Source of the DNA: a virus
Lineage: Duplodnaviria; Heunggongvirae; Uroviricota; Caudoviricetes
DNA length: 41,654 nucleotides
Virus record (IMG/VR): IMGVR_UViG_2531839667_000017
Span: 1-41,654 of that record
Strand: one strand, 5' to 3'
The stretch's first letter is position 1. The number at the start of each line of letters is the position of its first letter. This document shows positions 27,821 through 28,709 of the stretch, piece by piece. The position numbers were made by a program, and so were the translations under genes. The notes beneath the pieces were generated by a model. That model was not told the origin of the DNA, searched no databases, and saw only the letters and a program-made list of their open reading frames with translations.

Positions 27821-28709
27821 CGTGTTCACCCTCACGAACTTTCAGGTAGGTATTATCGTTAAGCAGGAAATCAAATCCCTTTTTGTGCCAGACAGTTCCG
27901 CGTTGATGGTTTGGACGCTCTTCGAACATCCATCGACAATTTTCGCCTACGTAGCTCAAATAATTTCTCCAGTCCTGCATCGTGAACCCATGTCCGTCAA
28001 GCTGGCGGGTTATCACTCCGGCTTTGCGCCAGAACGTTCGGATCTGGTTTTTACGCTTGTCATTCAGTGCGCGGATTCTTGGCGCTTCAGGAAGGATTTC
28101 GTGGTAAGCATCGACAACATCCTGACAGCTAACGGAAGGTTTTTTCTTGTCAGACTTTTTGTCTGCTGTGGCACTCTCTAATACGTCAGTATTAGAGATA
28201 ATATTATTATATTCTTTATCTGTGGTAATTTGCTGGTAATCTGCTGGTACAGTATTGCTTACAGGCATTGGTATTGCTGGCTTTGAGGTGGTAATTTGCT
28301 GGTAATCTGCTGGTACAAAATTTGACTGATAATCGTCATATTTCTCTACCGAGAAAACTGAGAATTTACCGTGTGAAACCCAGTCAATCATGCCGAGTTT
28401 TTTGAACTTTCTAAGCAGGTACTGAACGCGATCTGGTTTGAGTCCTGTTTCAAACGCCAGAGAGTTTCTACCGCCAAGTAGCTTCCCTCTGCCTACCAGA
28501 ATTTCTCCTGCGTCAGTCATTACATACTCAGGCGTATGCTTTGCTTTGAGGATTAAGTGAACCCACAGATGCGCTGCTTCTGCGTCCTTGTAAAACGGCA
28601 CATCCATAATTTTACGGTGCAGCAAGGCATACCCCTTACCGCTGCTTTGATGCGGTTGTTGTAGCCTTCTGGCCTCTCTGGCTTCGGCTAGATTAGATAT
28701 GTTACTCAT
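27810..28709 (-). CDS. replication initiator (lambda O-like); origin iterons lie inside the gene
   Basis: 299 aa; central linker encodes the tandem peptide [10 protein letters not shown] twice, coinciding with the DNA iterons. Confidence 0.75.
28222..28317. repeat. replication origin iterons: 30-bp direct repeat GTGGTAATTTGCTGGTAATCTGCTGGTACA at 28222-28251 and 28288-28317, with TGCTGG sub-repeats and an adjacent AT-rich stretch
   Basis: Exact 30-bp direct repeat 66 bp apart inside the O-like gene; AT-rich segment at about 28190-28221. Confidence 0.8.

Follow-up and report, generated by a model that had tools for sequence, protein, structure and literature searches.

A probable replication origin of 11-bp direct repeats inside the initiator gene of an HK022/HK620-type lambdoid prophage

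When a long direct repeat lies inside a gene for a replication initiator, is it a replication origin, a duplication that concerns only the protein, or a set of sites with some other job? The question is raised by an exact 30-bp direct repeat, GTGGTAATTTGCTGGTAATCTGCTGGTACA, at 28222-28251 and 28288-28317 of the window, by which we mean the whole stretch of viral DNA analysed here (41,654 nt). The initial annotation had read this repeat as origin iterons embedded in an O-like gene. The repeat is present as it described, against a chance expectation for exact 30-mer repeats of ~7.5e-10 per 41.6 kb. We put the probability at roughly 0.88 that the repeats are the replication origin of an HK022/HK620-type lambdoid module, located in the linker region of the gene for its own initiator.

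The gene that holds the repeat and its downstream partner are as follows.

27810..28709, minus strand: initiator gene, 299 aa (O in HK022/HK620), assigned from the open reading frame, PHROG 345 and ~99% DNA identity to known O; its protein consists of a winged-helix domain (aa 1-~128), an origin-bearing linker (~129-190) and a C-terminal domain (~190-299)
26384..27835, minus strand: phage DnaB-family replicative helicase (P in HK022/HK620), assigned from Pfam DnaB and DnaB_C and from TIGR03600

The downstream partner had been taken for a DnaB-family helicase rather than a lambda P-type loader, and this was borne out by the two Pfam domains and by a TIGR03600 (phage_DnaB) score of 582 bits against a cutoff of 499. 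The helicase probably starts at the ATG at 27820 (478 aa), as in the HK620 annotation; helicase neighbours of 478 aa are also found at two of the relative loci (L064 and L065). Upstream of the initiator gene, Pfam identifies a DUF2740/orf48 gene, cII (Phage_CII), a cro-like gene and a divergent S24 repressor, and NinB was also found. This is the lambdoid early-right context of cI, cro, cII, orf48, O, P and nin, with the gene order of HK620. Because the rest of the window carries genes of a lambda-like siphovirus, a mosaic early region and an integrase, it is read as a lambdoid prophage in reverse orientation.

An origin at this place is already on record. Over 900 bp, the initiator gene is 98.9-99.2% identical in DNA to O of mEp235, HK022, HK620, VT2-Sakai, an Stx1 phage and many Stx2 phages. 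A 100% identical initiator protein is encoded on 295 contigs, and the full origin region occurs in 227 of 5426 complete E. coli genomes (~4%). In the HK620 record (AF335538), a two-piece rep_origin at 10369-10464 maps to 28222-28317 of the window, exactly both 30-mers. Gene 43 of Sf6 is annotated as 'putative; repeat region reminiscent of the phage lambda origin; similar to phage HK620'. A 'putative origin of replication' is likewise entered in the record of phage L. For phage L, six imprecise 11-bp repeats, TGTCCAACGGA, have been described as the likely origin and set beside the iterons of lambda and P22 (PMC8022706). Thus, the existence and location of the origin are given in the HK620, Sf6 and L GenBank records, and the feature is an ordinary one that was correctly read from the letters. 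The existing annotations of this origin type all read 'putative' or rest on analogy, and a search of the searchable literature for a replication assay, footprint, binding experiment or ori mutant for this origin type found none.

The repeats and their flank can be resolved into the following parts, listed in the order in which O is transcribed.

28273..28316, minus strand: iteron cluster 1, four tandem 11-bp units U1-U4
28316-28306, minus strand: U1, GTACCAGCAGA
28305-28295, minus strand: U2, TTACCAGCAAA
28294-28284, minus strand: U3, TTACCACCTCA
28283-28273, minus strand: U4 (degenerate), AAGCCAGCAAT
28251..28272, minus strand: 22-bp spacer between the clusters, which together with cluster 1 makes a 66-bp unit that is expanded in some alleles
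28218..28250, minus strand: iteron cluster 2, three tandem 11-bp units U5-U7
28250-28240, minus strand: U5, GTACCAGCAGA
28239-28229, minus strand: U6, TTACCAGCAAA
28228-28218, minus strand: U7, TTACCACAGAT
28199..28219, no strand assigned: AT-rich tract and presumed DNA unwinding element, with one C in 21 nt, overlapping the end of U7
28175..28198, no strand assigned: perfect palindrome, TCTCTAATAC gtca GTATTAGAGA, with 10-bp arms and a 4-nt centre

The 30-mer copies are exact, but the natural repeat unit is 11 bp long. Two TGCTGGTA sub-repeats lie inside each 30-mer, as had been noticed, and Tandem Repeats Finder independently called period-11 arrays at 28218-28249 and 28289-28315. The unit has the consensus TTACCAGCAnA and is present in seven copies, six good and one degenerate. 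All seven fall on a single 11-bp lattice as two clusters that are 66 bp (6 x 11) apart and in phase. The entire window holds four copies of TACCAGCA, read in the coding direction, all of them at these repeats and on the same strand. Unlike the iterons of lambda and P22, the 11-bp units are direct repeats lacking internal symmetry. Additional TTGCTGG copies had been claimed between the 30-mers; one exact copy is there (28274-28280), belonging to U4, while the other candidate reads TTGCTTA.

Past cluster 2, the AT-rich flank was likewise confirmed, as GC content is 0.175 in the 40-nt window 28180-28219, the lowest within the initiator gene. The order along O transcription is iterons, the 21-bp AT-rich tract, and the 24-bp palindrome at the far edge of the tract. 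The span initially given to the origin, 28190-28330, does hold the repeats, but its left boundary cuts through the palindrome, a conserved part of the same element.

The 30-bp repeat is also a protein repeat, as it encodes a duplicated 10-residue peptide in the linker of the 299-aa reading frame, just as the first reading had it. It could then be nothing else than a tandem duplication in a disordered linker, a product of slippage or unequal crossing-over that does nothing as DNA, the origin then lying elsewhere. The copy number of the 66-bp unit does change, since E. coli, E. albertii and Salmonella have longer alleles, of 321 and 343 aa, with 2.5 and 3.5 perfect (100%) copies, against 1.5 in the 299-aa allele of the window; unequal crossing-over thus does occur. 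The linker peptide is also poorly conserved between relatives. The two 30-mers are identical even at synonymous sites, and unequal crossing-over, rather than selection alone, could keep them so. On the other hand, 11 is not a multiple of three, and the starts of successive units have codon phases 0, 2 and 1. Since the units are read in three frames, what repeats is the DNA, and the 11-bp periodicity cannot stem from a repeat of the peptide.

Comparison with relatives bears further on this point. The comparison set comprised the same gene from seven phages and 51 bacterial genome loci. The layout of two clusters of three units is conserved in ~50 relatives while the sequence of the unit varies (TACCAGC, GTCCAAC, GTCCAGC, TGCCAAC, ATCCAAA, GTCCG and others, by group). 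In ~46 diverged Enterobacterales loci, with at least six different unit sequences, the offsets are fixed: in nearly all relatives, counted from the KYDDYQ codons, CC dinucleotides lie at +30/41/52 (often also +63) and +96/107/118. The iterons are followed in these relatives by an AT-rich tract and by a perfect palindrome with 9-11-bp arms. Mean identity is 91% between the two clusters of one locus, 66-68% between clusters of different loci, and 55% between spacers of different loci. A duplication without a role as DNA is hard to reconcile with offsets and an 11-bp phase that stay fixed while the units differ, with clusters far more alike within a locus than between loci, with an AT-rich tract and a covarying palindrome that always come after the repeats, or with the same order of parts in lambda and P22. 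We regard it as highly improbable. Reading the repeats as an origin inside the O-like gene, as initially proposed, is favoured by both the coincidence with the HK620 rep_origin and this comparative conservation.

The unit sequence varies together with the protein. Residue 90 (L versus I/V) tracks the base after CCA (G versus A/T) in 45 of 46 loci and residue 97 (Y versus S/A) tracks the dinucleotide before CC (T[AG] versus [GA]T) in 45 of 45, and the two residues occur in all four combinations; this association is correlative, between linked sites ~100-250 bp apart in related sequences with a handful of independent changes, and hitch-hiking could explain part of it. In the structural model described below, residue 97 falls in the predicted recognition helix (aa 92-104) and residue 90 immediately ahead of that helix.

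The N-terminal domain and the iterons also move together. The window gene is 41-66% identical to the Sf6 gene over nt 1-500 and 94-100% identical over nt 501-900, and ~147 E. coli genomes match 28100-28219 only, which argues for an exchange of N-terminal domain and iterons as a single block. The junction between HK022-type and Sf6-type mosaics lies at the end of the last iteron. In Erwinia phage Ehr59 and several genome loci, the N-terminal domain and iterons (in Ehr59 also the palindrome) are kept but joined to a lambda-type C-terminus and accompanied by a P-like loader. Such mosaics fit a C-terminal domain that sets whether the partner is a helicase or a loader, as judged from sequence comparison.

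The repeats might still be binding sites with another main job, such as binding a host factor, copy control by handcuffing, or exclusion of co-infecting phages by titration. Plasmid iteron arrays do serve copy control as well, and plasmid-borne lambda iterons take part in a replication-silencing phenotype (PMC3349717). However, wherever the sites go, the N-terminal domain of the very gene that holds them goes too, and an AT-rich tract, which is a hallmark of unwinding elements, always borders them. For the host initiator DnaA, there is no box anywhere in the O gene, and the 28 found window-wide against 31 expected are at chance level. A secondary regulatory role would in any case add to origin function rather than replace it, and we find it very unlikely that another job is the main one.

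On the origin reading, it is the N-terminal domain of the initiator that would bind the units. The protein matches PHROG 345, 'replication initiation O-like', with E 1e-87, and also several PHROG 'DnaD-like helicase loader' families with E 7e-21. In Pfam, its N-terminus gives no match to PF04492 (Phage_rep_O) even at E up to 5, in a run in which lambda O and P22 gp18 matched with E 6e-36 and 7e-38. The name 'O-like' thus holds for position and role, but does not extend to the family of the N-terminal domain. The best N-terminal Pfam match is instead PF09681 (Phage_rep_org_N), sub-threshold at E 0.094 and 13.2 bits versus a cutoff of 23.3. Among 63 diverse relatives of the domain, gathered with phmmer, 15 match PF09681, at E down to 7e-8, and Phage_rep_O is matched weakly (E 8e-4) by one; 5131 representative relatives were found at E up to 1e-3. 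By these sequence matches, the DNA-binding domain appears to sit nearer the SPP1 G38P/DnaD-like replisome organisers than the lambda O family. NCBIfam holds no model that matches the initiator, and a PDB sequence search with the family profile gave nothing meaningful.

An AF2 model of aa 1-135, built on the 63 relatives, has winged-helix topology at pLDDT 85, with helices at 43-55, 81-88 and 92-104, the last being the predicted recognition helix, and strands at 108-112 and 117-121 (wing 108-121). Foldseek matched the model to generic winged-helix DNA binders (CAP, ZitR of the MarR family, TubR, SmtB and CodY), the top matches being weak (E ~3e-3, TM ~0.4). The C-terminus is 25% identical to that of P22 gp18 (E 1e-4), and similarity of the N-termini is undetectable. 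A profile-profile comparison with lambda O was discarded as evidence of homology, as only C-terminal columns aligned and the profile contained the lambda-type C-terminus of Ehr59.

These parts suggest how the origin may work, the mechanism of lambda being transferred by analogy to an initiator whose N-terminal domain has no detectable homology to the DNA-binding domain of lambda O. The winged-helix domain would bind the 11-bp units as direct repeats through its putative recognition helix. With their 11-bp phasing, the sites would look towards roughly the same side of the DNA helix, and a multi-protein complex like the lambda O-some could form. This complex, together with negative supercoiling and pR transcription through the gene, would open the AT-rich tract next to the iterons. 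Recruitment of the phage's own DnaB-type helicase would then fall to the C-terminal domain, which Sf6 and L share and to which the P22 gp18 C-terminus is distantly related, so that a loader of the lambda P type would not be needed. The palindrome may mark the far edge of the unwinding region, acting by its symmetry as a hairpin or cruciform in opened DNA or as a symmetric binding site. The origin tolerates the additional clusters of the longer alleles, comparable to the six lambda-type iterons, in place of four, of Stx phages (PMC7466680).

Every relative examined has the palindrome, and its sequence comes in at least 15 variants. As single-stranded DNA, it would fold into a hairpin of -8.4 kcal/mol (z = -5.2). 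Among 29 sequences aligned with MAFFT, each of the 10 pairs has changed on both sides, and 91.7% of the cells are paired; most of the others belong to two rows that the aligner had displaced by 9 nt. Covariation scores 0.75, compared with 0.20 after shuffling and at most 0.22 in slid controls. There are hardly any G-T pairs, so the compensatory changes point to selection on the symmetry of DNA rather than on an RNA hairpin. Scanned against Rfam at gathering thresholds, the whole window gave no match, so neither the palindrome nor the repeats are explained by a known RNA.

In a consensus scan, the palindrome came up as a terminator-like site of the plus strand, antisense to O, and the phage L record lists predicted terminators at this site. 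An intrinsic terminator was rejected as the main reading, because the stem is AT-rich with three G-C pairs, G-T wobble is essentially missing, and the palindromes of lambda and P22 have no T-run.

Alternatively, the AT-rich tract and palindrome could lie outside the origin and serve mainly as a recombination linker for the exchange of lambdoid modules. It speaks for such a linker that the HK022-type/Sf6-type mosaic junction falls exactly at the tract and palindrome, and boundary sequences are annotated elsewhere in Sf6 (bsq5). A recombination linker, however, needs identity and not symmetry, and here it is the sequence that varies while self-complementarity persists through changes on both sides of 10 of 10 pairs. 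Moreover, lambda and P22 keep a palindrome of unrelated sequence at the same place. Of the alternatives considered, we rate this one the least probable.

Counting the tract and palindrome as parts of the origin, we tentatively propose, with somewhat less than an even chance of being right, that lambdoid origins require the palindrome as a structure-specific element, such as a hairpin or cruciform defining the unwinding edge or the entry point of the helicase. The proposal draws on the compensatory changes, on a palindrome sequence that follows neither the iteron type nor the type of C-terminal domain, and on the recurrence of a palindrome in lambda and P22 beside DNA-binding domains of another family. 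The palindrome of ori lambda was noted in lambda papers of the 1970s-80s, and we know of no function assigned to it. Literature searches on a 28-bp palindrome of ori lambda returned nothing relevant, nor did any function come to light in the literature searched. The role of the covarying palindrome is the one loose end here that is worth a bench test.

Since the origin is a known one, understanding of lambdoid replication is unchanged. The origin marks where the prophage would start theta replication after induction, and the same type is found in Shiga-toxin phages such as VT2-Sakai and the Stx1 phage; replication of Stx phages drives toxin gene dosage. Details beyond the existing annotations are the 11-bp lattice, the two residues that track the iterons, the 3- and 4-copy 66-bp alleles and the covarying palindrome.

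Among known systems, HK620, HK022, VT2-Sakai, mEp235 and the Stx1 phage have essentially the same DNA and the same partners, orf48/DUF2740 upstream and a DnaB-type helicase downstream. The HK620 feature marks the two 30-mers only and omits the degenerate fourth unit, the AT-rich tract and the palindrome. Next come Salmonella phages L and ST64T and Shigella phage Sf6, with initiators of the same family that are 65-67% identical in protein to that of the window and have nearly identical C-terminal halves. They share the layout of the window, with three 11-bp units in each of two clusters at a distance of 66 bp, followed by an AT-rich tract and by the same palindrome. Their iteron, however, is TGTCCAACGnn in place of TTACCAGCAnA, and their recognition-helix region reads ETFIPDNKVKS, which differs from the corresponding 11-residue stretch of the window protein. 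With both iterons and recognition-helix region different, a different origin specificity is expected.

In ori lambda, the linker of the initiator gene likewise holds, along transcription, first iterons, then an AT-rich tract and then a palindrome whose centre is 4 nt long, and the initiator follows the same two-domain logic. The lambda iterons are bound by the N-terminal domain of O. In the lambda sequence (L061 coordinates), iterons at 435-519 are followed by the AT-rich tract and by a palindrome at 563-590 with 12-bp arms and a 4-nt centre. The AT-rich tract of ori lambda is 38 bp long (PMC3349717), and that of the window takes the same position. The differences are that lambda has four imperfect inverted repeats of 18-19 bp spaced 20-24 bp apart instead of tandem 11-bp direct repeats, that its O N-terminus is a Phage_rep_O domain, which the window initiator does not match, and that its P protein loads host DnaB whereas the window module encodes a DnaB-type helicase of its own.

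P22 resembles the window in combining an initiator, with ori in its gene 18, with its own DnaB-type helicase (gene 12), and in having orf48 upstream. Its origin has four 20-bp iterons, an AT-rich tract and then the palindrome CCCCCT-aa-AGGGGG. The gp18 N-terminus is of the Phage_rep_O family and the P22 iterons are internally symmetric, neither of which applies to the window; the C-terminal domains are distantly related and the N-terminal domains have no detectable similarity. For SPP1, one binding region of its initiator G38P, oriL, lies inside the G38P gene itself. G38P is an origin-binding protein (PMC5499656), and initiators of its type (PF09681) and DnaD-like initiators appear to be nearer to the N-terminal domain of the window protein than the lambda O family is, although their hosts (Firmicutes) and their helicase and loader partners differ.

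In natural initiator alleles of 321 and 343 amino acids, the 66-bp unit that contains an iteron cluster is present in 2.5 and 3.5 perfect copies, respectively; the copy number of the origin varies here within a coding region.

L064 1893-2120 and L065 1893-2054: longer alleles of the window's initiator gene, proteins P0001 and P0002-P0027

Two initiator residues, 90 and 97 (codons within window 28400-28450), vary together with the bases at two places in the 11-bp iteron (28218-28316). Residue 90 lies just before the predicted recognition helix and residue 97 within it. Leucine at residue 90 is paired with G after CCA, and isoleucine with A after CCA. 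For residue 97, tyrosine accompanies T[AG] before CC, and serine accompanies GT before CC; all four combinations of the two residues occur among the relatives. These pairings make up a candidate, putative recognition code.

Very distant relatives of the N-terminal domain come from Spongiibacteraceae, Elusimicrobiales, Bacteroidia and Prevotella (loci L054, L057, L058 and L059). Directly after this domain they have short peptides that are duplicated or arranged in tandem (examples are TEQRPNNDRTTTEQRPNT and an eightfold NEQT repeat), followed by Asn-rich, AT-rich stretches. The peptide repeats and AT-rich stretches of these distant members suggest that an origin in the linker may be general to the large N-terminal domain family (5131 representative clusters).

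Two further reading frames adjoin or overlap the initiator gene.

28702-28848, - strand: DUF2740/orf48 gene (48 aa), overlapping the initiator gene start by 8 nt
27822-28181, + strand: 119-aa ORF, running antisense across the initiator gene's C-terminal half

P22, L, HK620 and Klebsiella phages also have a conserved DUF2740/orf48 gene upstream of this initiator family. Its PHROGs label, 'tail protein', looks like a mis-annotation because the gene sits in the replication module. The antisense ORF corresponds to a hypothetical protein (ORF b66) in an Stx1 phage record, and the call is probably spurious.

An OOP-like region overlaps the cII gene (28881-29177, - strand) at its 3′ end.

~28858-28940, + strand: OOP-like region
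28905-28932: terminator-like hairpin AAAATCCTCGGTGGCGGCCGGGGATTTT with a T-run
~28840-28875: conserved pO/oop 5′ region, reverse complement ACTGGATCTATCAACAGGAGTCATTATGACAA

Taken together, the hairpin and the pO/oop 5′ region look like an OOP-type antisense RNA; Rfam at gathering thresholds gave no match for the region.

The 119-aa antisense ORF ends, at 28181, within a palindrome that lies at the far edge of the AT-rich tract of the origin.

28175-28198: perfect palindrome with 10-bp arms
L004-L009 and L011-L056 (relatives), same place; lambda (L061) 563-590: equivalent palindromes

The symmetry of the palindrome is retained by compensatory changes in every relative, with at least 15 variants, with both-side changes at 10 of the 10 pairs and G-T pairs nearly absent. 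The palindrome sequence does not track iteron type or C-terminal domain type. No function assigned to the palindrome turned up in the literature searched. In lambda and P22, a palindrome is likewise present at the equivalent position.
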